A stretch of 64,000 nucleotides of DNA from Paraspadella gotoi (Eukaryota > Animalia > Chaetognatha), in contig CM119268.1 of assembly GCA_051294375.1 (NCBI GenBank), positions 16,435,074-16,499,073 on the forward strand, in the 5' to 3' direction. The notes under the pieces are model-generated. The model was not told where the DNA came from and made no database searches. It saw only the letters and a list, made by a program, of their open reading frames with translations. The translations under genes were made by a program, and so were the position numbers. Positions 2,163 to 34,228 of the stretch are shown here, in pieces (positions within the stretch are counted from its first letter, which is position 1; each line of letters opens with the position of its first letter).

Positions 2163-3856
2163 ATCGATTAATCAATCCAAATCAATTATTTAAGTCATTA
2201 GAGCTATCATCAATAAATTAAAAAAGAAATCTTGCAATCATTCAATCAATCAACCTCGACGGTTGCCGTCTTGACGACACGCCGCGATGAAGTAGGCGGC
2301 AAAAAGGCAGGAAATCACAACGCTGCCGGCAAATCGAAGACGAGGTCCGTGCCTCGATTTGAAATCGGACGCGTGGTTTTGCAGTGTCTGCACCAGACGC
2401 GTGAGGGACGTTCGAAGGAGAGTCCGGATGCGTGAGAGGGTCTGCGGAGGAGGAGGGGCACAGTGAGTAATTAGTTTGAGATCCTGTAGTCGGCATTGCA
2501 TAAGTTCACCCCGTTTTATAAGCATGACACCTTCGGTCGTGACCCGGTGGAACTCACAGTGANNNNNNNNNNNNNNNNNNNNNNNNNCGATAATCAATCC
2601 AATCAATTATTTAAGTCATTAGAGCTATCAATCAATAAATAAAAAAGAAATCATTGCAATCATTCAATCAATCAACCTCGACGTTGCCGTCTTGACGACA
2701 GCGCCGCGATGAAGTAGGCGGCAAAAAGGCAGGAAATCACAACGCTGCCGGCAAATCGAAGACGAGGTCCGTGCCTCGATTTGAAATCGGACGCGTGGTT
2801 TTGCAGTGTCTGCACCAGACGCGTGAGGGAGTTCGAAGGAGAGTCCGGATGCGTGAGAGGGTCTGCGGAGGAGGAGGGGCACAGTGAGTAATTAGTTTGA
2901 GATCCTGTAGTCGGCATTGCATAAGTTCACCCCGTTTTATAAGCATGACACCTTCGGTCGTGACCCGGTGGCTCAGTGAGTAAAGCATCAGCTCATGACC
3001 ACTCGGTACTTAGTTCAATCCCAACCTGGTACCTGACCTGTGGGAAGCATGAGGACGGCCCTAAACAGCGTTGGAGGCCTGGAAATCTCTCTAGTCTGGT
3101 TCCAACCTCCATGGCTGCTCAGGGGCATAGAAGCCTACTTAGCGCCTTATTCACACTGGTGAGCCTATCCTGTCGAGCGTATTTCCAACCTTCTGATTCG
3201 AGGCCCCTACTCTAGCTGAAGATTGCTTCCCTCCCTCCACTGGAAGCAGTGCAGGGGGGCATGTATTTGGGCATGCATAAGTTCACCCTGCCTAGAAGCA
3301 TGACACCTTCAGGCGTGACTAGGTGGCGAAGTGAGTAAAGCAATCAGCTCATGATCACAATATACCCGGTACCTACCCTGTGGAAAATGTGAGGTCGGTA
3401 GTAAACCGCCTTTTGGGGCTTGAAAACACTCATGCCTGGTTCCAAGCCCAGTATCCGTGCTGAGGGGGCATAAAAGTTACGGATAGTAGTCTTCAGCCAC
3501 TTACCGCCTTATCCACAATCCGAGCAAAAGTTTTCCTGACAAATGTTAGTTTAATTTTGATTAAAAATTTAATTAAACCATCGGATAGCATCTGTCCTTC
3601 ACGTATTATGTTTTACAAAATTTATAACACTTTAAAAATAACTGGACCGGCGCGATCGAATCATACATATCTCTCTCTCTATCTCTCTCATACAATCTCC
3701 CCCTCTGTCATACCAACGAACGTCGCGGATGACGACGTATGACCAGCGTCTCGGCGCCCAGAGTCCGCGGTGCACCGGCATCAAAGTTGCGGCTTCGCTG
3801 TTCGGTTGAAGCGGAATTTTTTCGACGGCGTCGTCGAAAGCGGCGTCGCGTTCCAT
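39..3856 (-). CDS. SLC28: Concentrative nucleoside transporter (SLC28/CNT family), 5' exons; gene continues beyond the left edge of the window
   Basis: Exons with GT/AG ends at 3856-3714 (MERDAAFDD...), 2862-2677 (ISCLFAAYFIAA), 841-402 (GLLVFVFLFFVFSRHPGHVKWRPVFGGFLLQFVIAVLVLKTRLG) and 127-39 (FCFFRFAGQQTEIFLNYSSYGADFVF). The latter two match the CNT N-terminal motif V.WR.V..G..LQF...L.LRT..G...F...G.Q...FL.Y...G..FVF. Indels disrupt frames locally. Confidence 0.85.
2163..2978. repeat. Tandem duplication of about 400 bp across an N-gap (SLC28 exon 2 plus start of TRIM-B)
   Basis: 2163-2561 is nearly identical to 2588-2978; the copies are separated by Ns. Confidence 0.9.
2906..3517 (+). mobile_element. 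TRIM family B: complete miniature LTR retrotransposon with tRNA-derived LTR segment (Helenus-like), in SLC28 intron 1
   Basis: TSD ATCC (2902-2905 and 3518-3521); LTR1 2906-3155 (TGTAG...TTCACA); PBS TGGTGAGCC from 3157; PPT AGGGGGG 3253-3259; LTR2 3262-3517 (TGTAT...TCCACA). A-box-like TGGCTCAGTGAG at about 2969-2980, B-box-like AGTTCAATCCC 3012-3022. Confidence 0.88.
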
Positions 3857-3906
3857 CTTTGGAGTCGCTCGTCTAACTTCAGGTCGGCGCTCGGAAAAGC
3901 AAATTA

Positions 3907-3916
3907 AATAATAATA

Positions 3917-3964
<48 letters not shown>

Positions 3965-3989
3965 TAATAATAATATAATAATAATAATA
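3907..3989. repeat. (AAT)n microsatellite just upstream of the SLC28 start (copy at 13570-13658)
   Basis: Directly visible trinucleotide run. Confidence 0.95.
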
Positions 3990-4996
3990 GTCGCCTTGCT
4001 TTTCGGAACTTCTGATGCGGTGCGAGATCTGATACCAGTTATTTTTTAAAACAAAAATTTAAATCTTGGAAAAAAAAGTAAACCAACGTCGAAACACTTT
4101 CTTACCTTCTAATCAAGAAAGGTAGTGCATCATATAATAATAATTATGTTTTTATTATATCAAGGAGTATCATAAGAAAATCTCATGCAATATCAGTTTT
4201 CAAAAAATGTTCTTTAGGGTTTCCCTTTTTCGGACGCACTTTGTCGATGCAATTCCTTATTTTTATTGTAATATTAGTCATCAACTGGATTAAATTAAAA
4301 TTTGTTCTATAACGTTTTACTGTATCTGAGTATTTAAAAATTAACTAAGATTCCATTTGGAAACATGCGGAAACATGACCATTAGGCCGGAACAGGTTGA
4401 AAACTAGAAGTTCTTTTAAATAGATAATGCTCAAGTGACTGTTAGAGAATATGAAAATGAAAATAATTTTTAAAATTTGTCTTTTGATAAGCGCACGGAA
4501 GCATTTAAAAATTATTTTTTATTACTATATAAATTTTAAATTTTTTAAAGATTTTTTAATTTTTTATTATTATTATTATTATTATTTTTATTATTTTTTT
4601 TATTAATTATTTTATTACTATATAAATTTTAAATTTGTTTTTAATTTTTTTTAATTTTTTAATAGATTCTGATAGAGCTTTAAAAGTTAGTTAAAGGTTA
4701 TTATTACATTTACAACTTTGAAAATTGTTTGTTTTATAGATAAAAATTTAAAAAAACATAAAATTCAGCCAATAATGATGATAAAGATGATTTTTTAAGG
4801 TTTTTTTCTATTTTTAACCATTTTATTATAAAAATTTTTAAAAATATTTAAAAGCTTCAGTGCAACAACTCTCAGAACTAATTCAAAAAGTTGAATTGAA
4901 ATCGATTTTGTAATAAGAGTAGGAAAAAAGAATTCTTTTTGAGAGAACTAGAATTTATAAAAAGGTGGTTCAATTTTGGCCCGCATTAATGACCAT

Positions 4997-5648
4997 TATG
5001 GTGGAATAAAATCCACCAACCGTTCATCAGCGGCCATTGGTGCCGGAGGCAAGTCATTCGCCTCCCAACCCAAAGGTCCGGGGTTCTTGCCCGGTGTCGT
5101 CTGGCAGTTAAGAGGGACGGGGCGCTTAACCCGCCTGTAACATGGTGTTACAGCCTGATCCGAAGCTCAGGGACTGCTTATATTGAACGGTTCTGTCACT
5201 AACACATAACAATAATTACTGTCTCTTCATTGGTGAGCCCGACTTCCGAACACAACAGCAACAACAACACTTTCAGGCGACATGCCTCAACCTGGCGATG
5301 CACTTTCCGCCCACAACACATCAGGCGACATGCCTCAACTTGGTGACGAACTTTCCACCAACAACAATTCACTGAAGAGACGCAACAGACTTCTCCCTAT
5401 GGGAGGGGGGGATGTATGGTGGACTAAAATCCACCAACCGTTCATCAGCGGCCATTGGTGCCGGAGGCAAGTCATTCGCCTCCCAACCCAAAGGTCCGGG
5501 GTTCTTGCCCGTGGTCGTCTGGCAGTTTAAGAGGGACGGGGCGCTTAACCCGCCTGTAAACATGGTGTTACAGCCTGATCCGAAGCTCAGGACTGCTTAT
5601 ATTTAACGGTTCTGTCACTAACACATAACAATAATTACTGTCTCTTCA
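4997..5648 (+). mobile_element. TRIM family A: complete 652-bp miniature LTR retrotransposon with tRNA-derived LTR segment; insertion polymorphic between duplicate copies
   Basis: TSD CCAT (4993-4996 and 5649-5652); near-identical LTRs 4997-5229 and 5415-5648 ending TCTCTTCA; PBS TGGTGAGCCCGAC 5231-5243; PPT GGGAGGGGGGGA 5401-5412; empty site gaccattct at about 14852-14860. Confidence 0.95.
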
Positions 5649-6578
5649 CCATTCTAATTAAATTTGATGATTGAGTTTACAACGCACTTGATTTATTCGG
5701 GAGATCTTCCGCAACCTTCCACTTGATGAGTAAATGTCAAAAATTCAAATGATTTTCGAAAATATTTTTATATATATTTGATAATATCTATTTATGAAGC
5801 AAATTTTGTTTTTAAGGAAAATTTTCAACTGATTGCCCAAGCTTAATTCTCCACCACAGCAAGGATTAAAAGTAAGATTTAGTTGTGTTTTTTTTATTTA
5901 TAATATAAAATATTATAAAGAATCGAGCAAAGATAGGGGAATGGATCGGATCAGTCAAATCATATGGCTATTAGCCAAGGATCAAGCGAAGGATTCGGCG
6001 ATGGAACTAACTTTTGAAATAAAAGGCCTTTAAAAGTCAATCTAAATTGTTATTGAAAAAAAAACAACTTTTTATTGTGCACTATCATTTATGATTTTAC
6101 TGAATCTCTATTCTGATACCTCCTTACTCATAAATTTATAAGAATATCAAAACCTTTTTCATTAAAAGTTAATTCATTAATAAAACTTAGTAATTGAACC
6201 GACGTAAGTATTTTAAACTTACTCGCTTAACTGATTAAATCAGATTTAGTGTTACCGCATTTGAGAGGCAAAAAGAATTAGGTAACCTAAAAAAATATTC
6301 TTTGCGTTTGTTTCATCTTTAGGAACCGTAAAAAAAAAGAAGAAACATTTTTGTACTTTTTGGAAGTATTAAAAAATTACAAAAAGATCCACTCAAATTT
6401 TCAAGAATAACACGTGTTAAGCTTTCTGAATATATAATTATAATTTTTCCGATGACAGTGCGGCGAAAGCGAAGCCTTTCTGTGGATTTTTCTATCGCGA
6501 CGGAAATGAAAACTCTTTCGCGTTCGAAGAGTCGACCAAGTTTACGACACTTTATACTTTTAAAATTTCAACATTACT

Positions 6579-6579
<1 letters not shown>

Positions 6580-6646
<67 letters not shown>

Positions 6647-7520
6647 CAACAAAGAATTCAGTAAGAAGAAAAGACAAAGGAAAACAAAAGAATGTGAAAA
6701 GAAATGAAATTTGAGTGTTAATAATAATAATAATAATAATAATATAAAAATCAATTACATTTTTACAAAGTATAACAATTAATGAGAATAAATTAATTTC
6801 AATTAAACGGATGTAAAATTAATAAATTAACGAAAATAAAAAATAGTGGTGAAAGGAAATTACATTGAAGAAAAAAGTTAAAGAAAGAAGCTCAAATTGG
6901 TTGTTCTTCCTGAACAACCTGAGCCTCACAACAACTCCCCTCTTCCAACTCAATGGACTAGAAGGAGGCCTGACACTAAGCACCCATGGTCAAACAGACC
7001 CTCTTCATTAGTCCCAGCAACTCTGCCTGGTTCTCCTCAGACAGCGCGTCCAAAGACAGCAGGAGCAAGATGGAGAGGAGATTTCTGCTACGCCAGCAAA
7101 ACAAAGCAGAATATAGGGTCTGCCTCCTCAGCAGGGGAGATGAGGACAAGTTGTAGGGAGAAAGATAGGCAGCAGGACATCAGAGTGGCCTTGGGCTTAT
7201 TACCACCGCCACTTTGCCCTCAGCCCCAATGACTTTCCCCATGACCAGCTCATCCGTACCTGACCCTCATTGGGTGCCCGATGACGGCGAGGGGGCCAGC
7301 TCGATTCGTTCAATTGAAATTAATTTATTCTCATTAATTGTTATATATTGTAAAAATGTAATGGATTTTTATATTATTATTATTATTTAACACTCATATT
7401 CAGTTTCGCTTCACATTCTTTTTGTTTTCCTTTGTCTTTTCTACTTACTTATTCCCCCTACTATTCTTTGTTGCAAACTTTCTTTTGTTCTCTCTCTCTC
7501 TCTCTCTCTCTTTTCTTTCT
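6580..7520. mobile_element. Foldback/MITE-like element with about 200-bp imperfect inverted arms ending in (GA)n/(TC)n and a GC-richer core (copy at about 15791-16720)
   Basis: 6643-6810 (aacaaagaat...aagacaaaggaaaacaaaagaatgtgaa...attaatttcaatt) is the reverse complement of about 7305-7480; arms are flanked by AG and CT runs respectively. Confidence 0.7.
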
Positions 7521-7851
7521 TACTTACTCCAGAGCAAAACTGTTTACATTTAATTCACACTGATGAATGTCTGAAACTTATATATTTTCAAATAAAATTG
7601 GTTGTGAAAACAAAGAAAACTGTTCTTATATCAAATACTTTGAGGTCAAAAATACATATAAAAAAAACCCGAAAATTTATCGGTTAGTTCCTTTTTAAAA
7701 TTTAAAAAAAATCGTTTTTTCCATCGGCGAATTTTAAGTGAAACTTTTTCTCCCCAATTCACGATTCTAGAAAAAAAGAAAAAGAAAAAAAGAAAAATTC
7801 CAATATATTTGGCGGATTTTTTTTCATAATTTGTGGCGGTTTTTAAAGTGG

Positions 7852-8096
7852 TGAAATGACAGAGAGGAGAGAAGGTCACCATGCCTCTCTCACTTGGAGA
7901 TGTTTTTCGTCAGTTCCCTTGCTTTCCGGAACTTCGGATCCGGCGGCAGGCTTGCTACCGGTGGATTAACCGGCCCGTCACTGTTCCGACCCAGACTAGA
8001 ACCCGTGACATGGGTTCGAGATGAAGCATAAGCCCAGTGCGCTGAGGGAAGGAACAGTCGTATCCAACGGGTATTATATTATATTACATCCCTACA
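7852..8096 (-). mobile_element. Solo LTR, TRIM family C (related to family A)
   Basis: Minus strand reads TGTAGGG...CTCTGTCATTTCA; flanks GTGG/GTGA (3 of 4 match); shares blocks with the family A LTR (AACCCAAnGGTC.nGGGTTCTAG, GACGGGnCGnTTAAnCCnCCnGTA, GATCCGAAG). Confidence 0.75.
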
Positions 8097-10162
8097 GTGA
8101 AACCAATCCGCAAGACGTATAACTCATTTGGACTTTTTCATTATATACTCGAAACTTTAATGTTTTTTGTTGTTTTTTTTTATTAAATTTAATGTTTCTC
8201 GTGATTACGTTAAATAATCGTGAGTTAAGGAAAAAGAATGATTCATAAAATATCGGCAATTGTCACGCTTTTTAGCCTCAAAAAGTTAATCGATAACCAT
8301 AAACTTTTTCAATGTTTAAAGGTATACGTGTATTTAAATAGTTTTATAATTAAATTTTAATTAAGGGCTTATAATAAATTATAATTAATTTTACTGACCT
8401 ATACATGTTCCGATATAAAGAAACGTAGGAAAACAAAAAAAAAAAAAAGTTTTTCTTGATTGTCGCCGATTGAGCCGATCAACACCTTGATTAGGAGACT
8501 TAAATTATCTTTGAAATCACTTTGATCTATTTGAATCCCCTTTTTTTTTAACTGAAGTAGGGTCATAACCTTTACATTTATTGAATTCGCTTTTTAAAAG
8601 CAAAGGATGGTCTTAGAAATAATCACAAAAAGACATATTGAAACATCAATATCTTACCCGATTTATATAAAATGTTATGTATAAAAAGCATGAAGCAGCA
8701 TTTATTCCGCGGAACCAAGGTGAGTCTATGTCGCTATTAGAAGTTAAGAAATATTTTTTCAATGGTAATTTTCGTTCAAACTACCAAACTTTATAAACGT
8801 CCTTGGGAAAAATTCCGTTAAAAAATAGTATTGCATCTGAAGAGCTTGAATTTTTTTCCTCATCAAATAGACTACTCCTTTATGAAAAAATTTTCCATCT
8901 CTGATTTTATATAGAAATGAAAGGGATTTTTTCCCTTCAAAACAATATAAAAATGATTAAGGTATGTTCTGGTTCCACAAATGACATCAAATTGAGGCTT
9001 AGGGCTGAAAGGCTCGTAATTTTTTTTTTTAACTTTTATTTATTTATTTTTTATGGCAAAAATCTTCAAAAGAAGGGTTGGATTATACAAAGATTTTTAT
9101 TAATATTTTCTATTGTCATGGTCGGACTTATTTGAAACTTAACAATAGCAACATTGACATCATTCTACATTGGCCGGTATAAAAATATATTTAAAAAACC
9201 TTTGGCTTTTTTCGTTTAGAGTTTAGTCCTACTTATACTTCTTGGCGATCGGAAATGACTAATGTAGACTGATATCTGTTTTCATTGACTTCTCACTTCC
9301 TTTCAAGTTAGCAGCGGGCCCTCTAACCTATGAGATATCATTTTCTCTTTTACTGAGCCGTTAAAGGGACAGAAAGGACAGAAGGGACAGCAAGGGCCGG
9401 TTTACTAATGGCTCAACTCAATGAGATAACATAAAGGTTAAAAAGATTAGTCAGGGCGACTGATGATTAATGATAACCGAATGAATTTGAACTTTATACA
9501 AGGAAAATCTCTGGTTTCAGGGGAAAAAGTAAACAAACAATCACGGGGTTTGACTAATGGTCGGGAATTAAAAGTGACACGATTTTTGATGTCGATTACG
9601 TGATCGTTTGAGTGACAATTTAAGGACCGGCCGAAGGATTTTACAACGACTTAACTTCGACTTCATACTTATCTCTGTTGTTCATCTTCATTTACCCGAT
9701 ACTAAATTCGCTTCAAGACCACTGACGTAACAAGATCGAGACTTTAAAATTAAAATAAAACAAAATATACGCACATTCAAGCTAAGATATATAGGCCCAT
9801 GACTGTTTGTAACCTAAAATCATATAGTTAACCCTAAAGGTAGCATTGACCTGGTCCGTGAGTGTCGCCTGGATTAGCCATTACTTCCTCCTGATACTAT
9901 AAAAAAACTAAAAAAATACAAACCCCCCAAAAAATTTGTAAGATTTTTTAAGGATGCGCTATTAAGAAATTTAAAGAATCTTTTTAATGTAAAAATGAAT
10001 ATGTGTTTTACCTACAACACTTTTAGTCAAACGTTAAACAGAAAAAGGATTTTTTTCGTGAAAAAAAATACCCCTTTTGTTTAGCGTACAAGCAACGATA
10101 ATAAGGATCATACAAGTTCGTCAAACGATGAAAATTCGCCAAACTTCATGAAGGATGCCATG

Positions 10163-10223
<61 letters not shown>

Positions 10224-10723
10224 CGAGAGAGAGGGAAGGTGGGAATATCCAAACGACACGAAATACCAAAGGCTCATCCTCGACTAAATGAAAGTAGACC
10301 GTTAGGGTCGTTATCGTCGTCGTCTTCGTCGTCGTCATCGTCGTTGTACCATTTGTTGTTTCAGCACGCTGTTTTTGGGAGAGGCCTCTACCATGGAAAA
10401 TTTAGCGCACAGTCGCCGTTTCGCTAATAAAACGATTAAAATTGATAAAATTAACATAACTTAACTCAACTCACCAAACCCTATTAAAAATATGAGATTA
10501 TTATTCAAATGTCTGAGAAATCTAACCATCGAGATTCAGCGAACGTTCATAAACTCGTCAGGCTTCCTTCAGGTAAATTCAAATAATTTATATTCTAATT
10601 CGAGGCTGCAATTGTGAAACTGTGATATCTTCAATCTTCACCCATTAAAGGCAAGTGGCTATAAAAAAAATTGATATTTTTCGCATTTGTTATCCTCTTT
10701 TACTCTACCTTCTTTCCCATCAG

Positions 10724-12606
10724 GAGAATCGAGGCCTTTTTTTCCAAAACACGAGAATTCGAACTTACTCTTCCCAGCGCGGCGTCCACACGGAGCTCCT
10801 TATCATCTCTAACCCCTTCCTCTTACCCGGGTAAGTCTTTTTTTTCTGACCGAACCTATAATCAATGAATTCGGCCCTGAAATATCGTCGTAATGCCGAT
10901 GATTTTAAATTATCGTAATAAGACTTTTAACTTCTTAAACAGGGTCCACTTCGAAAGACGACAACGACAACTCGTTCAACGCAAAGTCTCCATCTCTGCT
11001 TCGTCCACGGATATCAGGGTGGCCGTCTCGAGTAAAAAGGGGGCCAAGAGTGTCCATAAATTTTTTTTTTTTTTTATGATCTATAAAACCTATAAAAAAA
11101 AACTTTTACCCATAATTTTATAAGAATTTAATAACCATTTATCAAACGTGCGGGCAATTCAGCAAAAATCGAGTAATTGTGGTTAGTAAAATACAAGAAA
11201 CAAAAACTAATAAGAAAAATTTGCTGGAAATGCTTCTTTTGTAAGGAATCAATCATTAATTTTCTTTTTTTTTTTTTTAGTGAACTACTTTTATACTATA
11301 ATAAACTGTCAACGAAATTCCACAGAAAAAAGATCGGTACTTACAGTTGCTTTCAAGGCTACGACAGTTGCAGAGACAACTTGTTTTACACGAACAAAGG
11401 AGAAATTATTATCACATCGCGGGTGAGTGCCTAATACTCGTTTTTTTATTATCTTTTATTATGAAAATTAATAAATCTTTCAATTTTTAGGAATCGCCGT
11501 TTTGTACACGAGATCAACTCACTCCCAACGATTCTACTTTGGTCACTCGGAAGACATACTCTCACTGACTCTACACCCTCAGGTTTTTAAAGAGTAGTTA
11601 TAAGTTTTTAAAATAGTCTAAGTACTTTAATGCAACTGTTAATAATACCATTTCTTTTTTATTTCCAGGGAGAAATAGCTGCGACGGGCGACGTCGGGAA
11701 GAAACCGACCATCAAAGTTTGGAGCCTTTATCCGAGGCACGCGTTGGTCAATTGTCATCTGTCTTCTAATTGTGTAGTTATTGTATTGTTATTGTTATTC
11801 ATCGAAAAGAGAAAAGAAAGAGCTTAGCAACAATATTTGAAGTAATGGGCTGAAATCTTAATAGTTGTGACTAAGATTCTTTTGATGAAGTTAAATGTTA
11901 TGTTTGGTTAAACTACTTTTGACTTAGCCACCCCTTCCTCAGATCCGCACTTGACGACCCTTTCCGGGATCCACGAACGTGGCGTCTGTTGCGTCGATTT
12001 TTCGGGTGATGGGAGATTCTTGGCGTCAGTGGAGTGGATGACTTTCATACCCTCATCGTCTGGGATTCGGGAAAAGGCACGTGACAACCGATTTAGCCAA
12101 TGCCGATCTTCTGACGCATTTCCGTGTAACCATTTCTATTATTATCCCAGGGCGAGCCGCTCTCTTCGAGTCATGTCACGTCAACAAAGTTTTCGGTTTG
12201 AAATTTAATCCTCACGACTCCACGAATTTGGTGAGATTTTATATAACAATATAACAATATATTAAATGAGACAACGAATTTATTTTTATTATCATAAAAA
12301 AAGAACAAGTTTTGGCTATAATGTTAGCCTTCATCAGCGAAACGAAAAGAAAGAATCAAAAAGAACAATGTATCGCATTAGGCATTGTGTTTAAGACAAA
12401 AACTTTAAGTAGATAAGCAGATAATAGATTCATTTATTATTATTACTTATCCATTATTTTTTTCTAATTTTTCCACTTGACTTTCCAGGTGACGATCGGT
12501 CAAAAGTTGGTCAAATTCTGGCGAAGAGACGAGCGGCGTCTCTCGGACGGAGGGGGGCGTTGGGTCGCTAAGCAACGCGTGGGAGGATATGAATGCCTCG
12601 CTTTTG
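10724..12606 (+). pseudogene. Truncated duplicate of the 5' half of the EML gene (probably an assembly or haplotype duplicate)
   Basis: Same exons as 19947-21826 with more frameshifting indels; ends at the duplication junction. Confidence 0.6.
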
Positions 12607-12636
12607 GTAAGGACGTTCCACAAGAAGATGCAGTGG

Positions 12637-13179
12637 CGAGTAAAGCCATCAGCTCATGACCACTCGGTACTTAGTTCAATCCCAACCTGGTACCTGACCT
12701 GTGGGAAGCATGAGGACGGCCCTAAACAGCGTTGGAGGCCTGGAAATCTCTCTAGTCTGGTTCCAACCTCCATGGCTGCTCAGGGGGCATAGAAGCCTAC
12801 TTAGCGCCTTATTCACACTGGTGAGCCTATCCTGTCGAGCGTATTCCAACCTTCTGATTCGAGGCCCCTACTCTAGCTGAAGATTGCTTCCCTCCCTCCA
12901 CTGGAAGCAGTGCAGGGGGGCATGTATTTGGGCATTGCATAAGTTCACCCTGCCTAGAAGCATGACACCTTCAGGCGTGACTAGGTGGCGAAGTGAGTAA
13001 AGCAATCAGCTCATGATCACTAATACCCGGTACCTACCCTGTGGAAAATGTGAGGTCGGCTGTAAACCGCCTTGGGGGCTTGGAAAACACTCATGCCTGG
13101 TTCCAAGCCCAGTACCCGTGCTGAGGGGGCATAAAAGTTACGGATAGTAGTCTTCAGCCCACTTACCGCCTTATCCACA
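12637..13179 (+). mobile_element. TRIM family B, second copy, 5'-truncated by the duplication junction
   Basis: Matches 2978-3517 including PBS, PPT, LTR2 and right TSD ATCC. Confidence 0.85.
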
Positions 13180-13374
13180 ATCCGAGCAAAAGTTTTCCTG
13201 ACAAATGTTAGTTTAATTTTGATTAAAAATTTAATTAAACCATCGGATAGCATCTGTCCTTCACGTATTATGTTTTACAAAATTTTAACACTTTAAAAAT
13301 AACTGGACCGGCGCGATCGAATAATACATATCTCTCTCTCTATCTCTCTCATACAATCTCCCCCTCTGTCATAC

Positions 13375-13519
13375 CAACGAACGTCGCGGATGACGACGTA
13401 TGACCAGCGTCCTCGGGCGCCCAGAGTCCCGCGTGCACCGGTATCAAAGTTGCGGCTTCGCTGTTCGGTTGAAGCGGAATTTTTTCGACGGCGTCGTCGA
13501 AAGCGGCGTCGCGTTCCAT
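13375..13519 (-). CDS. SLC28: Duplicate of SLC28 exon 1 (frame-intact version)
   Basis: MERDAAFDDAVEKIPLQPNSEAATLIPVHAGLWAPEDAGHTSSSATFV followed by GTATGA donor; phase fits the exon at 2862. Confidence 0.6.
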
Positions 13520-13570
13520 CTTTGGAGTCGCTCGTCTAACTTTCAGGTCGGCGCTCGGAAAAGCAAATTA

Positions 13571-13658
<88 letters not shown>

Positions 13659-15788
13659 GTCGCCTTGCTTTTCGGAACTTCTGATGCGGTGCGAGATCTG
13701 ATACCAGTTATTTTTTAAAACAAAAATTTTAAATCTTGGAAAAAAAAGTAAACCAACGTCGAAACACTTTCTTACCTTCTAATCAAAGAAAGGTAGTGCA
13801 TCATATAATAATAATTATGTTTTTATTATATCAAGGAGTATCATAAGAAAATCTCATGCAATATCAGTTTTCAAAAAATAGTTCTTTAGGGTTTCCCTTT
13901 TTTCGGACGCACTTTGTCGATGCAATTCCTTATTTTTATTGTAATATCTTAAAGTAATTGTTATTGTTATTGTTATTGTTATTGTTATTGTAATATCTTA
14001 AAGTATACNNNNNNNNNNTGCAAATTTTCATTAGTCATCAACTGGATTAAATTAAAATTTGTTCTAATAACGTTTTACTGTATCTGAGTATTTAAAAATT
14101 AACTAAGATTCCATTTGGAAACATGCGGAAACATGACCATTAGGCCGGAACAGGTTGAAAACTAGAAGTTCTTTTAAATAGATAATGCTCAAGTGACTGT
14201 TAGAGAATAGGAAAATGAAAATAATTTTTAAAATTTGTCTTTTTGATAAGCGCACGGAAGCATTTAAAAATTATTTTATTACTATATAAATTTTAAATTT
14301 TTTAAAAAATTTTTAATTTTTTTATTATTATTATTATTATTATTTTTATTATTTTTTTTATTAATTATTTTATTACTATATAAATTTTAAATTTGTTTTT
14401 AATTTTTTAATTTTTTTAATAGATTCTGATAGAGCTTAAAAGTTAGTTAAAGGTTATTATTACATTTACAACTTTTGAAAATTGTTTTGTTTTATAGATA
14501 AAAATTTTAAAAAAACATAAAATTCAGCCAATAATGATGATAAAGATGATTTTTTAAGGTTTTTTTCTATTTTTAACCATTTTATTATAAAAATTTTAAA
14601 AAAACATAGTACTAATTTTTATTTAACTTTTCATGCTTTATAGAAATCCGTTCTTGAAAGAGAAAATTTTTTCAAAATTTTTTGTCATTTGTTATATATT
14701 AAAAAATATTTAAAAGCTTCAGTGCAACAACTCTCAGAACTAATTCAAAAAGTTGAATTGAAAATCGATTTTGTAATAAGAGAAGGAAAAAAGAATTCTT
14801 TTTGAGAGAACTAGAATTTATAAAAAGTGTTCAATTTTGGCCCGCATTAATGACCATTCTAATTAAATTTGATGATTGAGTTTACAACGCACTTGATTTA
14901 TTCGGGAGATCTTCCGCAACCTTCCACTTGATGAGTAAATGTCAAAAATTCAAAATGATTTTCGAAAATATTTTTTATATATATTTGATAATATCTATTT
15001 ATGAAGCAAATTTTGTTTTTAAGGAAAATTTTCAACTGATTGCCCAAGCTTAATTCTCCACCACAGCAAGGATTAAAAGTAAGATTTAGTTGTGTTTTTT
15101 TTTTTATTTATAAATATAAAATATTATAAAGAATCGAGCAAAGATAGGGGAATGGATCGGATCAGTCAAATCATATGGCTATTAGCCAAGGATCAAGCGA
15201 AGGATTCGGCGATGGAACTAACTTTTGAAATAAAAGGCCTTTAAAAGTCAATCTAAATTGTTATTGAAAAAAAACAACTTTTTATTGTGCACTATCATTT
15301 ATGATTTTACTGAATCTCTATTCTGATACCTCCTTACTCATAAATTTATAAGAATATCAAAACCTTTTTCATTAAAAGTTAATTCATTAATAAAACTTAG
15401 TAATTGAACCGACGTAAGTATTTTAAACTTACTCGCTTAACTGATTAAATCAGATTTAGTGTTACCGCATTTGAGAGGCAAAAAGAATAAGGTAACCTAA
15501 AAAAAATATTCTTTGCGTTTGTTTCATCTTTAGGAACCGTAAAAAAAAAAAGAAGAAACATTTTTGTACTTTTTGGAAGTATTAAAAAATTACAAAAAGA
15601 TCCACTCAAATTTTCAAGAATAACACGTGTTAAGCTTTCTGAATATATAATTATAATTTTTCTGATGACAGTGCGGCGAAAGCGAAGCCTTTCTGTGGAT
15701 TTTTCTATCGCGACGGAAATGAAAACTCTTTCGCGTTCGAAGAGTCGACCAAGTTTACGACACTTTATACTTTTAAAATTTCAACATT

Positions 15789-15840
<52 letters not shown>

Positions 15841-17052
15841 CAACAAAGAATTCAGTAAGAAGAAAAGACAAAGGAAAACAAAAGAATGTGAAAACTTAAA
15901 AGAAATGAAATTTGAGTGTTAAATAATAATAATAATAATAATAATAATATAAAAATCAATTACATTTTTACAAAGTATAACAATTAATGAGAATAAATTA
16001 ATTTCAATTAAACGGATGTAAAATTAATAAATTAACGAAAATAAAAAATAGTGGTGAAAGGAAATTACATTGAAGAAAAAAGTTAAAGAAAGAAGCTCAA
16101 ATTGGTTGTTCTTCCTGAACAACCTGAGCCTCACAACAACTCCCCTCTTCCAACTCAATGGACTAGAAGGAGGCCTGACACTAAGCACCCATGGTCAAAC
16201 AGACCCTCTTCATTAGTCCCAGCAACTCTGCCTGGTTCTCCTCAGACAGCGCGTCCAAAGACAGCAGGAGCAAGATGGAGAGGAGATTTCTGCTACGCCA
16301 GCAAAACAAAGCAGAATATAGGGTCTGCCTCCTCAGCAGGGGAGATGAGGACAAGTTGTAGGGAGAAAGATAGGGCAGCAGGACATCAGAGTGGCCTTGG
16401 GCTTATTACCACCGCCACTTTGCCCTCAGCCCCAATGACTTTCCCCATGACCAGCTCATCCGTACCTGACCCTCATTGGGTGCCCGATGACGGGCGAGGG
16501 GGCCAGCTCGATTCGTTCAATTGAAATTAATTTATTCTCATTAATTGTAATATATTGTAAAAATGTAATGGATTTTTATATTATTATTATTATTTAACAC
16601 TCATATTTCATTTCGCTTCACATTCTTTTGTTTTCCTTTGTCTTTTCTACTTACTTATTCCCTCTACTATTCTTTGTTGCAAACTTTCTTTTGTTCTCTC
16701 TCTCTCTCTCTCTCTCTTTCTTTCTTACTTACTCCAGAGCAAAACTGTTTACATTTAATTCACACTGATGAATGTCTGAAACTTATATATTTTCAATAAA
16801 ATTGGTTGTGAAAACAAAGAAAACTGTTCTTATATCAAATACTTTGAGGTCAAAAATACATATAAAAAAAACCCGAAAATTTATCGGTTAGTTCCTTTTA
16901 AAATTTAAAAAAAATCGTTTTTTCCATCGGCGAATTTTAAGTGAAACTTTTTCTCCCAATTCACGATTCTAGAAAAAAAGAAAAAGAAAAAAAGAAAAAT
17001 TCCAAATATTTGGCGGATTTTTTTTCATAATTTGTGGCGGTTTTTAAAGTGG

Positions 17053-17318
17053 TGAAATGACAGAGAGGAGAGAAGGTCACCATGCCTCTCTCATTTCGTA
17101 TGTCCAGTGGGAATTGGAGATGTTTTCGTCAGTTCCCTTGCTTTCCGGAACTTCGGATCCGTCGGCAGGCTTGATACCGGTGGATTAACCGGCCCGTCAC
17201 TGTTCCGACCCAGACTAGAACCCGTGACCATTGGGTTCGGAGATGAAGCATAAGCCCAGTGCGCTGAGGGAAGGAACAGTCGTATCCAACGGGTATTATA
17301 TTATATTACATCCCTACA
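17053..17318 (-). mobile_element. Solo LTR, TRIM family C, longer allele (266 bp)
   Basis: Same as 7852-8096 with an extra ~20 bp at about 17093-17114; TG...CA ends on the minus strand. Confidence 0.75.
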
Positions 17319-19392
17319 GTGAAACCAATCCGCAAGACTTATTCCTCATTTGGACTTTTTCATTATATACTCGAAACTTTAATGTTTTTTGTTGTTTTTT
17401 TTTATTAAATTTAATGTTTCTCGTGATTACGTAGAATAATCGTGAGTTAAGGAAAAAGAATGATTCATAAAATATCGGCAATTGTCACGCTTTTTAGCCT
17501 CAAAAAGTTAATCGATAACCATAAACTTTTTCAATGTTTAAAGGTATACGTGTATTTAAATAGTTTTATAATTAAATTGTAATTAAGGGCTTATAATAAA
17601 TTATAATTAATTTTACTGACCTATACATGTTCCGATATAAAGAAACGTAGGAAAACAACAAAAAAAAAAAGTTTTCTTGATTGTCGCCGATTGAGCCGAT
17701 CAACACCTTGATTAGGAGACTTAAATTATCTTTGAAATCACTTTTATCTATTTGAATCCCCTTTTTTTTAACTGATGTAGGGTCATAACCTTTACATTTA
17801 TTGAATTCGCTTTTAAAAGCAAAGGATGGTCTTAGAAATAATCACAAAAAGACATATTGAAACATCAATATCTTACCCGATTTATATAAAATGTTATGTA
17901 TAAAAAGCATGAAGCAGCATTTATTCCGCGGAACCAAGGTGAGTCTATGTCGCTATTAGAAGTTAAGAAATATTTTTTCAATGGTAATTTTCGTTCAAAC
18001 TACCAAACTTTATAAACGCCCTTGGGAAAAATTCCGTTAAAAAATAGTATTGCATCTGAAGAGCTTGAATTTTTTTCCTCATCAAATAGACTACTCCTTT
18101 ATGGAAAAATTTTCTATCTCTGATTTTATATAGAAATGAAAGGGATTTTTTTCCCTTCAAAACAATATAAAAATGATTAAGGTATGTTCTGGTTCCACAA
18201 ATGACATCAAATTGAGGCTTAGGGCTGAAAGGCTCGTAATTTTTTTTTAACTTTTATTTATTTATTTTTTATGGCAAAAATCTTCAAAAGAAGGGTTGGA
18301 TTATACAAAGATTTTTATTAATATTTTCTATTGTCATGGTCGGACTTATTTGAAACTTAACAATAGCAACATTGACATCATTCTACATTGGCCGGTATAA
18401 AAATATATTTAAAAAACCTTTGGCTTTTTTCGTTAGAGTTTAGTCCTACTTATACTTCTTGGCGATCGGAAATGACTAATGTAGACTGATATCTGTTTTC
18501 ATTGACTTTTCACTTTCCTTTCAAGTTAGCAGCGGGGCCCTCTAACCTATGAGATATCATTTTCTCTTTTTACTGAGCCGTTAAAGGGACAGAAAGGACA
18601 GAAGGGACAGCAAGGGGCCGGTTTACTAATGGCTCAACTCAATGAGATAACATAAAGGTTAAAAAGATTAGTCAGGGCGACTGATGATTAATGATAACCG
18701 AATGAATTTGAACTTTATACAAGGAAAATCTCTGGTTTCAGGGGAAAAAGTAAACAAACAATCACGGGGTTTGACTAATGGTCGGGAATTAAAAGTGACA
18801 CGATTTTTGATGTCGATTACGTGATCGTTTGAGTGACAATTTAAGGACCGGCCGAAGGATTTTACAACGACTTAACTTCGACTTCATACTTATCTCTGTT
18901 GTTCATCTTCATTTACCCGAGCGCGATACTAAATTCGCTTCAAGACCACTGACGTAACAAGATCGAGACTTTAAAATTAAAATAAAACAAAATATACGCA
19001 CATTCAAGCTAAGATATATAGGCCCATGACTGTTTGTAACCTAAAATCATATAGTTAACCCTAAAGGTAGCATTGACCTGGTCCGTGAGTGTCGCCTGGA
19101 TTAGCCATTACTTCCTCCTGATACTATAAAAAAACTAAAAAAATACAAAACCCCCCAAAAAATTTGTAAGATTTTTTAAGAATGCGCTATAAAGAAATTT
19201 AAAGAATCTTTTTAATGTAAAAATGAAATATGTGTTTTACCTACAACACTTTTAGTCAAACGTTAAACAGAAAAAGGATTTTTTTTCGTGAAAAAAAATA
19301 CCCCTTTTTGTTTAGCGTACAAGCAACGATAATAAGGAATCATACAAGTTGGTCAAACGATGAAAATTCGCCAAACTTCATGAAGGATGCCA

Positions 19393-19464
<72 letters not shown>

Positions 19465-19946
19465 GGGAAGGTGGGAATATCCAAACGACACGAAATACCA
19501 AAGGCTCATCCTCGACTAAATGAAAGTAGACCGTTAGGGTCGTTATCGTCGTCGTCTTCGTCGTCGTCATCGTCGTTGTACCATTTGTTGTTTCAGCACG
19601 CTGTTTTTGGGAGAGGCCTCTACCATGGAAAATTAGCGCACAAGTCGCCGTTTCGCTAATAAAACGATTAAAATTGATAAAATTAACATAACTTAACTCA
19701 CCAAACCCTATTAAAAATATGAGATTATTATTCAAATGTCTGAGAAATCTAACCATCGAGATTCAGCGAACGTTCATAAACTCGTCAGGCTTCCTTCAGG
19801 TAAATTCAAATAATTTATATTCTAATTCGAGGCTGCAATGTGGAACTGTGATATCTTCAATCTTCACCCAGTAAAGGCAGTGGCATAAAAAAAATTGATA
19901 TTTTTCGCATTTGTTATCCTCTTTTACTCTACCTTCTTTCCCATCA

Positions 19947-22900
19947 GGAGAATCGAGGCCTTTTTTTCCAAAACACGAGAATTCGAACTTACCTCTTCCC
20001 AGCGCGGCGTCCACACGGAGCTCCTTATCATCTCTAACCCCTTCCTCTTACCCGGGTAAGTCTTTTTTTTCTGACCGAACCTATAATCAATGAATTCGGC
20101 CCTGAAATATCGTCGTAATGCCGATGATTTTAAATTATCGTAATAAGACTTTTAACTTCTTAAACAGGGTCCACTTCGAAAGACGACAACGACAACTCGT
20201 TCAACGCAAGTCTCCATCTCTGCTTCGTCCACGGATATCAGGGTGGCCCGTCTCGAGTAAAAAGGGGGCCAAGAGTGTCCATAATTTTTTTTTTATGAAT
20301 CTATAAACCTATAAAAAAAAACTTTTACCCATAATTTTATAAGAATTTAATAACCATTTATCAAACGTGCGGGCAATTCAGCAAAAATCGAGTAATTGTG
20401 GTTAGTAAAATACAAGAAACAAAAACTAATAAGAAAAATTGCTGGAAATGCTTCTTTTGTAAGAATCAATCATTAATTTTCTTTTTTTTTTTTTAGTGAA
20501 ACTACTTTTATACTATAATAACTGTCAACGAAATTCCACAGAAAAAAGATCGGTACTACAGTTGCTTTCAAGGCTACGACAGTTGCAGAGACAACTTGTT
20601 TTACACGAACAAAGGAGAAATTATTTATCACATCGCGGGTGAGTGCCTAATACTCGTTTTTTTATTATCTTTTATTATGATAATTAATAAATCTTTCAAT
20701 TTTTAGGAATCGCCGTTTTGTACACGAGATCAACTCACTCCCAACGATTCTACTTTGGTCACTCGGAAGACATACTCTCACTGACTCTACACCCCTCAGG
20801 TTTTTAAAGAGTAGTTATAAGTTTTAAAATAGTCTAAGTGCTTTAATGCAACTGTTAATAATACCATTTCTTTTTTATTTCCAGGAGAAATAGCTGCGAC
20901 GGGCGACGTCGGGAAGAAACCGACCATCAAAGTTTGGAGCCTTTATCCCGAGGCACGCGTTGGTCAATTGTCATCTGTCTTCTAATTGTTGTTATTGTAT
21001 TGTTATTGTTATTCATAGAAAAGAGAAAAGAAAGAGCTTAGCAACAATATTTGAAGTAATGTGGCTGAAATCTTAATAGTTTTGACTATGATTCTTTTGA
21101 TGAAGTTAAATGTTATGTTTGGTTAAACTACTTTGACTTTAGCCACCCCTTCCTCAGATCCGCACCTTGACGACCCTTTCCGGGATCCACGAACGTGGCG
21201 TCTGTTGCGTCGATTTTTCGGGTGATGGGAGATTCTTGGCGTCAGTGGGAGTGGATGACTTTCATACCCTCATCGTCTGGGATTGGGAAAAGGCACGTGA
21301 CAACCGATTTAGCCAATGCCGATCTTCTGACGCATTTCCGTGTAACCATTTCTATTATTATCCCAGGGCGAGCCGCTCTCTTCGAGTCGATGTCACGTCA
21401 ACAAAGTTTTCGGTTTGAAATTTAATCCTCACGACTCCACGAATTTGGTGAGATTTTATATAACAATATAACAATATATTAAATGAGACAACGAATTTAT
21501 TTTTATTATCATAAAAAAAGAACAAGTTTTGGCTATAATGTTAGCCTTCATCAGCGAAACGAAAAGAAAGAATCAAAAAGAACAATGTATCGCATTAGGC
21601 ATTGTGTTAAGACAAAACTTTAAGTAGATAAGCAGATAAATAGATTCATTTATTATTATTACTTATCCATTATTTTTTTCTAATTTTTCCACTTGACTTT
21701 CCAAGGTGACGATCGGTCAAAAGTTGGTCAAATTCTGGCGAAGAGACGAGCGGCGTCTCTCGGGACGGAGGGGGGCGTTGGGGTCGCTAAGCAACGCGTG
21801 GGAGGATATGGAATGCCTCGCTTTTGGTAAGGACGTTCCACAAGAAGATGCAGTGGCCAATTAAAAAAAAAACGGATACCTTCAGGCCGCAACGCTAAGA
21901 TCTGCTACACGGGATCGTCGAGCGGTTCCGTTTATGTTTGGAATGGAACTTCGCTGCATAAGAGGATACAAGGAGTTCATAAAGGACCTTGTTTTGCTTT
22001 AGGTTGGAAAGATTTGAGATAAAAATGTTTTTATGAAATTGGTACAATCAATATAAAAATTATCCATTCATTTAATAAATAAGTTATCTTGCCCCTGACT
22101 TTGGACAGGCTTTGGTGGTTTAAGGCCTCCATCATAATATAAGATAATATAAGATAATGACATAGCAGGTCCCTGCAAGCTTTCAATCTAGACTCTCTCA
22201 CAGTCTCGTTTATTCACTCTCTGCGGCAGTCATTTATCTTCATCATCGTTATATTGTACTCTTGATTATCTTCTTCTTCATTGTCATCATCATTATTTTC
22301 GTCCTAATCGCACGTGATCTTCATTATATAACTAGTTTTAATCACTATTATTATTGTCGCTATCGTCATCGTCATCGATTCAGATTGACCGTCAACACAA
22401 TTATTATTATTATTATCATCGTCATCATCATCGCCGCCATTTTTTCTTTTCCTCTCTTCAGACTTCGACGACGACGTTGTGGTCACAGGCGGCGCCGACG
22501 GCGTCGTCGCCTTTTGGGACGAGACGTTGACGAAAGCTTTCAAAGTCGCGCGACTCAACAACGAAAATATCACTCCGGGTTTGATTGGAAAGCTGGGAAT
22601 CGAATAAACTGAATCAATTTCATCTAATAAATCAATCAACCAAATTTAGTCTGTCTGAACTATCTGCGTATTGTAATTCAAAAGAAACAACAACGACAAC
22701 GACTTTACTCTCTTGACTTCAGACTCCCACGGATTTCTCTCCTTCGAACTTCCGCCGGTCAACGCCCTCGACATCCGGGGAGGCAGGTGCACCTTGATTG
22801 GCACCAAGAACGGGGAGGTGCTGGAGATGACGAGTCAGGGCATCCGGGTTTTAGTGCAGGTGGAAGAAATCTGGACCGGGGGGCGGGGGGAAGAAATATG

Positions 22901-29802: not shown

Positions 29803-29823
29803 GCGAGAGAGAGAGGAGAGAGA

Positions 29824-29897
<74 letters not shown>

Positions 29898-29900
29898 AGA
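29803..29900. repeat. (AG)n microsatellite (others at about 6580, 10165, 15791, 19398, 51242, 55655, 57410, 59825)
   Basis: Directly visible dinucleotide runs. Confidence 0.95.
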
Positions 29901-31961: not shown

Positions 31962-34228
31962 TCAGTCGGTGATGTCGACGATGAGCGGAGTGATGAAGTC
32001 AGAGTGACGAATGCCGACAGGGAAGGCCGGCGCCTTAGGCTTGTTTATGTATACTCGTTCCGGTTGATAAGCGCTGTAGGAAAATGGAGGATTGGATTTT
32101 TGAATTGTTTAACGTATTGTTTGCCTGAGTCGATTGATTAATTATCTCGTTTTTTCGTAATTAAATTTGATTTTATTGATTGATTGATTGATTTATTTTT
32201 TGAGAGGTTGATTTATTGATTCATTGCTTGAATGATTAAATGATTCATTGATTTATTGATTCAAAGATTTATTGATTGCTTGAGTTGATTGATAAATTAT
32301 CTCGTTTTTTTCTTGATTAAATTTGATTTGATTTATTGATTGATTGATTTTTTGAAAGATTAATTTGTTGATTCATTGTTTGAATGGTTGAATGATTCAT
32401 TAATTCATCGATTGGATGAATTATCGATTGATTGATTGATTTATTTATTTCTTAATCAGCGCCATCTTTTTTTCCCCTCCCACCCTCTCCTTAATTCTTA
32501 ATTCCCTCTTCAATGTCTTCATCTTCCTTCTCACCCTGGTCCCGGCTTGATTGTCGTATCCCCAGGCAGCGTGGTCCGTCGCCCGAAAGAGTACTTGGGC
32601 TTGCGGGTCCTGATCACGTCCGGGTTGACGGGAGTGTAATGGCCGGGACCCGGGGACTTGGACAGGTCCTCGGAGAAACCGCCAATGGGCGGGCGGACGG
32701 CGAAGGAGTGGGCGGCGGCGGCGGGTTTGTTGGGGATGCGCGGGCCGAGCAGGGACGGCATCTCGTAGCTGCTCGGCGCCGGGACCGTATCCTTTTTTCT
32801 GCGAGGATAAGGAGAATAAAAAAAAAGCGTCAAAAAAGTAGCACGAAATTATAATTAAATTTCTTTGTTTAATTACAACGAAATGATTACAGATTAAGTT
32901 AGTAACGCTTGTTCATACTCGATTAGTCTTAGCCTTATAGTGGACTAAAATCCACCAACCGTTCATCAGCGGCCATTGGTGCCGGAGGCAAGTCATTCGC
33001 CTCCCAACCCAAAGGTCCGGGGTTCTAGCCCGATGGCCGCCTAGCAGTTAAGAGGGACGGGGCGCTTAACCCGCCTGTAACTCGGTGTTACAGCCTGATC
33101 CGAAGCTCAGGGACTGCTTATATTGAACATTTCTGTCACTAACACATAACAATTATCTCTGTCTCTTCAGCCTATGGATTCAAAACCTTCACTGAAGCCT
33201 TTACTCCAGTATTCGCGCTCACTCTCGCGAGCTTCTTGTCAAATTATCCAGCTTGACTGATTGAGTGGTTTCTGTCCAAATCTAGGCTCTCAAGGCCAAT
33301 TTTCTCTACGCCACGCCCAAGAATTTTCCGAATTTCCTTTCTCCTCGTTACCCACCCATCTGGTTTTCTAGGTCAATCTTTCTACGCCACTCACCTGAAT
33401 CTTGTTCTCTGCGCCATCGAATAGTTTGGCGCGTGCGGCTCGTTGGGCGGATGCACCTGCTCGTGCGCGTATTGAGACGGCGCTGGCGTCTTGAAGGTGG
33501 AGAGTTCTCCGTGACGCTGTTTCATAGTGAATCGATCGAACCCTTCCTTGCCTGTCGAGTTAAGGAGAAGTGATAAAATGAGCTGATGAAGAAAAAGTCG
33601 GCTAGAATTATATAAAATTAGCTAATGAAGAAAAACTTGGAGATAAAATTAGCCAATAAAAAAACTTGCTCATAGGATTAGCTAATAAAGAAAAACTCAG
33701 TCATAAAATTAGTACTATTGAGGAAAAAAAAAACTTGAGGTTAGACTCATTTTCATAATGAAATTCATTGCGTTTCTACCGATTCCCTCATTTTAACGTC
33801 GATACCATTTAAGAGACCGACCTCTTCTCGTGATGCTCGGCGGGATGAAGTACTTGGGACCCGGGCTGGTCTCCTTCCTGAACTCTGACCTCGCGGGCAG
33901 ACCGAACGAATACGCGGGCGACATGTGCTTGCTGGGGTCGTGTCCGATAAACCCGGCCGTGGGGGGCAAGGAGTATCTGACGCGGAACGAAATTAAAGTG
34001 AGACCAACGAGCTCGTTTTTTCTTTGCCTCTTTTGAGAATTGTTTTTATTTTTTTTTTATTTCATTGTCATTTATTATTTTATTTCACGATAACGACTTA
34101 TACCTCAGCTCAATCTCTCTCATCTCTACACTCATCTCTAATAATCTTTTAACTTACTTCGCCGGTCCAGGCCCCCGTTCCCTGGCGGCGATCATCGGCC
34201 TTTTCGGTGATTCGTCTTCGTCCCCCAT
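31962..34228 (-). CDS. ODF3: Outer dense fiber protein 3 / CIMAP1 (SHIPPO PGP-repeat ciliary protein), five exons
   Basis: MGDEDESPKRPMIAARERGPGPAK|YSLPPTAGFIGHDPSKHMSPAYSFG...SPGPKY...TPAPSQY...DLSKSPGPGHY...PGDTTIKPGPG|AYQPE...GIRHSDFITPLIVDITD*. Confidence 0.92.
32120..32450. repeat. Degenerate (ATTG)n tract with an internal ~155-bp duplication in the last ODF3 intron
   Basis: Repeated attg/gatt units; aattatctcgtttttt...attaaatttgattt occurs twice. Confidence 0.75.
32936..33169 (+). mobile_element. Solo LTR of TRIM family A in an ODF3 intron
   Basis: 234 bp highly similar to 5415-5648; TSD GCCT (32932-32935 and 33170-33173); starts TATAGTGG, ends TCTCTTCA. Confidence 0.93.
32969..33041 (+). 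other. tRNA-derived 73-nt segment inside the LTR (not a functional tRNA)
   Basis: Perfect 7-bp acceptor-like stem GCGGCCA/TGGCCGC, A-box-like TGGTGCCGGAGG, CT-CCC-AA loop, T-arm-like CGGG-GTTCTAG-CCCG; the anticodon stem is broken. Confidence 0.7.

Follow-up and report, generated by a model that had tools for sequence, protein, structure and literature searches.

Twister-like folds beside tRNA-like heads in Helenus-type miniature retrotransposons of the chaetognath Paraspadella gotoi: candidates for animal LTR retrozymes

Miniature terminal-repeat retrotransposons (TRIMs) whose long terminal repeats (LTRs) are tRNA-like have been described in animals as Helenus (TRIMp3), with target site duplications (TSDs) of 4 bp and Gypsy-like primer-binding sites (PBSs) (Kojima 2024, PMC10886601). 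In plants, the LTR retrozymes (Cervera et al. 2016, PMC4918200) are likewise non-autonomous and have a PBS, a polypurine tract (PPT) and a 4-bp TSD, with a self-cleaving motif in each LTR; they depend on Gypsy elements and are predicted to give a unit RNA without an R repeat, and the missing terminal repeat is handled through circularisation and Gypsy-driven copying (PMC4918200, PMC7761336). The animal retrozymes described so far, as presented in PMC7229834, are without LTR, PBS and PPT. Here we describe three LTR families, A, B and C, from a window of 64,000 nucleotides of the chaetognath Paraspadella gotoi (assembly GCA_051294375.1, contig CM119268.1, positions 16,435,074 to 16,499,073), in which a twister-like fold is predicted directly 3′ of the tRNA-like head and whose likely mode of action is that of LTR retrozymes, by way of a twister that is unusual and probably dimeric.

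As in Helenus, the complete elements of families A and B are non-coding, shorter than 1 kb, and bounded by two LTRs with a tRNA-like segment, and they have a PBS, a PPT and a 4-bp TSD. An earlier reading of the same DNA (the original prediction) had placed the complete elements and the solo LTRs correctly, with LTRs of 233 and 234 bp in A, 250 and 256 bp in B, and 245 and 266 bp in C, and it was also right about the length of the interior, 185 bp in A and 106 bp in B, the G-rich PPTs and the common PBS start TGGTGAGCC, which in both elements lies one base past the 5′ LTR; the bases common to the two PBSs number only 9-10. The 4-bp TSDs that it assigned are perfect for ATCC, CCAT and GCCT, whereas that of C agrees at only three of four positions (GTGG/GTGA); in a register shifted by one base, C has a perfect AGTG pair and GT..AC ends. 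Its four insertions are all present, but the second C copy is a duplicate of the first and not an independent locus. The TSD of the complete A element is proven, since the duplicated copy of the region, which lacks A, carries a single CCAT (Table 1), and this empty site shows that the insertion is recent or polymorphic. Family A as a whole looks young, as its LTRs are near-identical (228 of 235 positions) and a filled and an empty site occur within one window. The alignment of family C with A extends over the head and past it (score 69, against a shuffle maximum of 37), which points to a distant relationship.

The twister-like fold, of type P5, is predicted in each LTR of A, B and C; it was absent from the original prediction and likely changes the life cycle to be expected of these elements. 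Directly after the head the order is GA, T1 (3 nt), 6 nt, UAA, 3 nt, T2, the P3 hairpin, and P4 with an 8-nt loop (L4, U..AA) that pairs back to T1 and T2. With the type-P5 twister (Rfam RF02684) it shares GA with a 3-nt T1, UAA, T2, P3, and P4 with an 8-nt loop, while it differs in its scores, which are sub-threshold, in a 3-nt P2 strand, and in the exchange of P1 for a self-complementary hexamer. The core (GA, UAA and the 8-nt L4 with U..AA) is kept in A, B and C and in a fourth, unrelated fold, motif D, and the sequences of A and B align no better than shuffles. The catalytic G (of GA) and the UAA motif, predicted to be cut after its U, are present in nine of nine aligned copies. T1 is CGG/CCG in A and C, GGA/UCC in B and UGG/CCA in D, T2 is GC/GC or AC/GU, and P3 and P4 pair despite different sequences among the families, with compensatory changes between families in both pseudoknots and in P4. 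T1 has all three pairs in seven of the nine copies, the two copies of the B 3′ LTR having two of three, restored in the family letters, and T2 has both pairs in eight. Of the cells in this alignment 85% are paired, with both sides varying in 10 of the 17 pairs, whereas none of 500 shuffles reached that percentage and slid controls gave 22-48%; these figures are inflated by kinship among the copies, from which the structure itself was named, and they count as support and not as a probability. The D loop stands one column off in the alignment (A1), which lowers the pairing counts.

A descriptor that required pairing in T1, T2 and P4, and did not require a palindrome, matched the three A copies, the two C copies and motif D, all with a 6-nt loop. 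Its matches with loops of other lengths were three loci rich in AT and a second parse of the A solo LTR; shuffled windows (n=60) gave, per window, 3.3 matches over all loop lengths, 0.13 for a 6-nt loop and 0.03 that were palindromic. The decayed B copies were not matched by this strict descriptor. A covariance model built from the nine copies added to them just one match, the duplicate of the B 5′ LTR, with the next score at 10.6 bits, and a first pattern scan for relatives returned 0 matches. Twenty motif matches from outside (19 metagenome, one viral) were rejected as chance, given that P4 never had more than three of five pairs and no loop was fully self-complementary; a type-P1 reading of B made by eye, with a downstream GAGGG, was also dropped, as there is no T2 in register. 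Motif D has a minimal P3 and lies within an intron of an EML-like gene, on the antisense strand; of the 82 x 7 combinations compared for its element ends, four gave a 4-bp candidate, at about the chance level. A stretch at 58170-58228 (minus strand) matches the 3′ part of D at 76% over 62 nt and is probably a decayed second copy.

The position of P1 is taken by a hexamer that differs in all four families, GGCGCT in A, GCCGGT in C, AGGCCT in D and, in family letters, CGGCCG in B, and is self-complementary in each, as it is in six of the six real descriptor matches with a 6-nt loop. Within one molecule such a hexamer gives one pair and a palindromic tetraloop, below the twister P1 of at least 2 bp; between two copies it gives 6 bp, at -8 to -9 kcal/mol in A, C and D. 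Since P1 is reduced to a self-complementary hexamer that is different in each family, the model suggests that this twister works as a dimer. Axolotl hammerheads that combine a 1-bp stem with a palindromic tetraloop cleave much better when dimeric (PMC7229834), and we extend this behaviour to the A-D folds by analogy: the amphibian retrozyme hammerheads share with them the 1-bp closing helix, the palindromic tetraloop and two copies per transcript, although they are of another ribozyme class and belong to tandem non-LTR repeats (PMC7229834). Natural twisters are reported to tolerate defects in P1 and P2 and not in the pseudoknots or catalytic bases (PMC11662667), and the pattern in A-D is of the tolerated kind, with P1 and P2 altered and pseudoknots and catalytic bases kept. 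Cleavage by the monomer could still occur, P1 being dispensable in twisters (PMC11662667).

Of the nine public runs of one organism that contain part of this DNA we used four, and aligned their contigs to the A solo LTR and to B. The A solo LTR drew 8,559 (run X1), 15,345, 2,522 and 958 contigs, at a depth about four orders of magnitude over its flanks, and B drew 1,249 (X1), 1,320, 706 and 139, which covered its interior too; neither counts nor depths are copy numbers. Loose contig ends pile up at both termini of the A solo LTR (32935/32936 and 33169/33170) in all four runs. Families A and B are clearly genome-wide, and with these numbers the proposed dense local radiation does not hold. The two LTRs of B are identical in only 180 of 273 columns, a divergence that had gone unmentioned, and B is one old copy whose LTRs have drifted apart from one family type: the letter common in the family is that of the other LTR at 20 of the 24 aligned sites listed (four more fall in gaps), on which ground a chimera of two subfamilies was rejected. 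Six restorations in B were predicted before the contigs were aligned, of which three came out as predicted, one failed and two gave no reading. T1 is restored at 3395 in 4,253 of 4,417 depth (96%) in X1, the hexamer becomes a perfect palindrome in both LTRs (3061; 3399-3400), and the family letters at 3413-3414 remove the T4 run from the 3′ LTR and extend P3; the strand after UAA has three bases in the B family, the last an unpaired C. Inside the fold, the variants listed for family A are confined to three CpG sites and the loop of P3 (33082-33083). The A fold also has a 12-nt match around UAA (5122-5135) to Ajax LTRs in Data S1 of PMC10886601, with a hairpin next in both, which is probably due to chance, and its P3 stem (33075-33093) resembles the P3 of the Schistosoma Perere-3 twister, a possible hint that the ribozyme came from an RTE element.

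The tRNA-like heads are real but weak. Segments of about 70 nt with A and B boxes, expected 30-55 nt inside the LTRs, are indeed present, although they are weak and sub-threshold and the head of B begins at about 57 nt. No tRNA gene was called by ARAGORN at its default threshold, and Rfam gave no tRNA match over the window at E<=1. Scoring against tRNA models, suggested earlier as a check, gave the A solo head 14.7 bits, below the gathering score of 29 (E 2.5 over 4,227 families), and the fold of this head has a z of -3.6. ARAGORN scored the two heads of the complete A element at 78.5 and 82.3, scores that are supportive only, since lowered thresholds produced 28 calls at 80% and 185 at 70%, many by chance; its best call (98.6, 13027-13119) overlaps twister-like stems and not the head. 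Box scores, based on consensus boxes and 200 shuffles per LTR, were reached by five shuffles for the A solo LTR, 21 for the A 5′ LTR, two for the B 5′ LTR and 11 for the B 3′ LTR, where the best site lies outside the head and the B-box is partly deleted. The boxes of A and C are non-canonical; those of A are nearly invariant in their positions across the family contigs, and in B the majority letters at 3010-3012 yield a canonical B-box. The tRNA likeness of the C head is weak and depends on its homology to A.

We lean, by a modest degree, towards Helenus-type TRIMs with a retrozyme-like cycle, in which the RNA would be cut, circularised and copied by Gypsy proteins. Transcription by RNA polymerase III (Pol III) would begin at the head in the 5′ LTR and run on into the 3′ LTR, a read-through that is possible because the sense strand of A (652 nt) has no T4 run and the family letters of B remove the one in its 3′ LTR, although this argument is weak by itself. 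The two hexamers would pair to supply a 6-bp P1, and cutting would be favoured with both LTR copies in one RNA. Cuts between U and A after 5127 and 5546 would free a 419-nt unit RNA (5128-5546) that holds the PBS, the PPT and a single permuted LTR and lacks a terminal repeat; a host ligase would close it into a circle, from which a Gypsy reverse transcriptase, primed by a Trp-like tRNA, would rebuild both LTRs, and the integrase would leave the 4-bp TSD. A Gypsy-type partner had been thought probable, and the 4-bp TSD together with a PBS of the tRNA 3′-end type supports this, the PBS of A matching at 12 of 13 nt the bee tRNA-Trp PBS shown in Fig. S2 of Kojima (PMC10886601); none of the 14 open reading frames (ORFs) scanned among the 156 of the window belongs to a reverse transcriptase or integrase family. 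A narrower version, which we hold tentatively and somewhat short of an even chance, sees in these elements animal LTR retrozymes that bring a Pol III promoter of their own and whose twister is an obligate dimer; the palindromic P1 would act as a switch for 'both LTRs present' and only full-length transcripts would be cut to unit length and circularised.

A number of observations weigh against the retrozyme-like cycle and the ribozyme on which it depends. The best match to the Rfam Twister-P5 model, the B 3′ LTR, has 15.1 bits against a gathering score of 37.6, and the A solo LTR and C have no Rfam twister match at E<=10. The strand from UAA to T2 is 3 nt in all four families and 4 nt in the examples published in PMC8501958, and P2 has two pairs in A and one or two elsewhere, compared with about 4 bp in twisters; a third P2 pair predicted for B failed, the common letter at 3067 being C. 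For C and for the duplicated copy of B, structures other than the twister-like one are predicted as the lowest-energy folds, and the fold of D is weak and poorly defined; no tRNA head was seen at motif D. All tRNA head scores are sub-threshold, and the box scores of the two C copies were reached by 80 and 68 of 200 shuffles, not above chance. A stretch of 652 nt would be free of T4 by chance about once in four (an estimate from base composition). Finally, the circular unit RNA is not unusually structured, with a z of -1.2 for A, computed on a window one base off, and +0.5 for the decayed B.

The same observations bear on three other explanations. The ribozyme might be active chiefly in making the 3′ end: the RNA, begun at the tRNA-like start of the 5′ LTR and ended by the cut in the 3′ LTR, would remain linear, carry the same stretch of about 95 nt at its two ends and be reverse-transcribed by the usual strand transfer, and the twister would stand in for a Pol III terminator. 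The lack of a T4 terminator in A and C, and the removal of that in the 3′ LTR by the B family letters, would suit such an RNA, as would the lack of the strong structure of known retrozyme circles, and in Cassandra the short terminal repeat that is used comes from Pol III (PMC10886601); because both LTRs carry the same fold, though, a symmetric dimer would cut both, and nothing was seen that would block the 5′ copy, and we consider this account unlikely. If the elements instead follow an ordinary Helenus cycle, the twister-like part would be an inactive relic, acquired for example through a short interspersed nuclear element (SINE) carrying an RTE 5′ end. Twisters occupy RTE 5′ ends and the A P3 stem resembles a Schistosoma twister P3 (PMC8501958, Table 1), Kojima proposes SINE insertion as the source of Helenus heads (PMC10886601), and a short P2, no monomer P1 and sub-threshold Rfam scores are what a relic might show. 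Yet pseudoknots, catalytic bases and palindrome have been kept through compensatory change in four mostly unalignable families, and the RTE twisters are of type P1 whereas the A-D folds are of type P5, which leaves a relic improbable.

The retrozyme-like cycle might also be fed by read-through from RNA polymerase II, a source already suggested for the plant retrozymes, with the tRNA-like head vestigial or structural. A pair of cuts would release the unit whatever transcript contains it (PMC7761336), motif D lies within an intron and has a fold but no head, and the boxes of A and C are non-canonical; against this stand the canonical B-box in the family letters of B and, in A, a tRNA-like fold that is kept (14.7 bits; z -3.6) with box positions nearly invariant across the family, and we rate this source of the RNA as quite improbable. 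Returning to the cycle started by Pol III, its parallel, the plant LTR retrozymes, differ in having type III hammerheads, a tRNA-Met PBS, a larger size and no tRNA head, and their circles are highly structured and seen by northern blot, where the unit RNA of A is a prediction (PMC4918200). The Schistosoma Perere-3 twisters are also linked to a retrotransposon, but they lie at the 5′ end of a long interspersed nuclear element (LINE) (PMC8501958), whereas the A-C folds lie in LTRs.

The Helenus precedent that the original prediction had named is sound, tRNA-headed animal TRIMs with 4-bp TSDs being published (PMC10886601), and the design of a tRNA-like LTR is itself published. Short-motif searches of Data S1 found no catalogued Helenus match to A, B or C beyond isolated 8-9-mers, although line breaks can hide motifs there. 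By these searches, to which Repbase and Dfam stand outside, A-C appear to be new Helenus-type families without a catalogued counterpart. Most of the Helenus LTRs viewed have a T-run after the head, where A-C have the twister-like fold, and in the text of PMC10886601 available to us no ribozyme is described in Helenus, with 'twister' unmentioned and 'ribozyme' in one reference title only. The accessible text of the literature searched, including PMC6765202, PMC5680766, PMC13570524 and PMC8782182, describes no twister in an LTR or TRIM and no dimeric twister; the original twister alignments, Repbase and Dfam could hold them. Two Helenus elements of Synergus gall wasps, Helenus-2_SyJa and Helenus-2_SyUm, have a tRNA-Trp PBS that agrees with that of A at 12 of 13 nt (PMC10886601). 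By eye, their LTRs show CUGAUGA and GAAAC cores, three stems and complementary loops 3′ of the head. This combination in both Synergus LTRs is what we take to be the pattern of a type III hammerhead. Since an apparent hammerhead is placed there as the twister-like motif is in A-C, the pairing of a tRNA head with a ribozyme in the LTR looks recurrent, and on the narrower version above a tRNA head with a swappable ribozyme would form an LTR design that recurs and has gone unrecognised.

If cleavage holds, these elements would give eukaryotic twister ribozymes a second defined role, would carry the LTR retrozyme over from plants into animals and widen its ribozymes from hammerheads to twisters, and would propose, in testable form, how TRIMs of the Pol III type produce RNA that can be replicated in the absence of a terminator. 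A twister that depends on dimerisation would represent a new architecture among ribozymes, one missed here by standard Rfam scans: over the whole window Rfam reported no ribozyme at all, and targeted Rfam searches found no hammerhead. The young family A is a practical test case, and the elements matter for annotation through false tRNA-like calls and possible RNA cut sites inside host transcripts.

Table 1. Coordinates of the elements, their parts and the duplicated region in the window
Feature	Position	Strand	Details
Family B, complete, decayed TRIM	2906-3517	+	LTRs 2906-3155 and 3262-3517; 612 bp; internal 106 bp
B signals	PBS 3157-3165; PPT 3253-3259	+	TSD ATCC; PPT G-rich
tRNA-like head, B 5′ LTR	2962-3033	+	A-box at 2969; B-box 3012-3022
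Twister-like fold, B 5′ LTR, decayed	3034-3121	+	G at 3051; predicted cut after 3062
Twister-like fold, B 3′ LTR	3374-3461	+	G at 3391; predicted cut after 3402
Family A, complete TRIM	4997-5648	+	LTRs 4997-5229 and 5415-5648; 652 bp; internal 185 bp
TSD of complete A	4993-4996 / 5649-5652	+	CCAT
tRNA-Gly(CCC)-like head, A 5′ LTR	5029-5102	+	ARAGORN, below default threshold
Twister-like fold, A 5′ LTR	5104-5178	+	general-base G 5116; predicted cut after U5127; hexamer GGCGCT
PBS of A	5231-5243	+	TGGTGAGCC, one base past 5′ LTR
PPT of A	5401-5412	+	G-rich
tRNA-Gly(CCC)-like head, A 3′ LTR	5448-5519	+	ARAGORN, below default threshold
Twister-like fold, A 3′ LTR	5522-5598	+	predicted cut after U5546
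Family A solo LTR	32936-33169	+	TSD GCCT; head 32969-33041
Twister-like fold, A solo LTR	33044-33117	+	predicted cut after 33067
Family C solo LTR	7852-8096	-	TG..CA ends; 245 bp; twister-like fold 7918-7992; hexamer GCCGGT
Motif D, fourth unrelated twister-like fold	22084-22150	-	hexamer AGGCCT; blind descriptor scan
Tandem duplication, about 9.6 kb	2978-12637 / 12638-21857	.	window self-comparison
Counterpart of the B insertion	12638-13179	+	in duplicated stretch; 5′-truncated at junction
Empty site of the A insertion	14854-14857	+	single CCAT; duplicated copy of region
Counterpart of the C insertion	17053-17318	-	in duplicated stretch; no independent locus

The tandem duplication at 2978-21857 is likely an uncollapsed allele with sequencing noise, because a 7-kb block between its halves has only 30 mismatches but 93 gap openings. 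Other tandem near-duplicates in the window (1-1009 and 1158-2164; 2165-2550 and 2588-2971; 50741-54975 and 55058-58888) also differ by many indels, some adjoin N gaps, and they are likely uncollapsed alleles or assembly overlaps. Host genes at 398-42500 include a nucleoside transporter, an EML-like WD40 gene, SNX17-like, SHIPPO-repeat and Kelch genes, and exons of amidophosphoribosyltransferase (PPAT). Among its top matches, one PPAT exon is 78-84% identical to bivalve, mammalian and unnamed proteins, which points to an animal. An ORF of 965 aa at 44443-47340 (minus strand) has a long 24-bp (8-aa) tandem repeat and a weak Cornifin match. Inverted repeats of 84 nt, AAT-rich and 94% complementary, occur at 6729-7387 and 15934-16594, where they surround a GC-richer insert of about 490 bp and may mark a miniature inverted-repeat transposable element or a DNA transposon.

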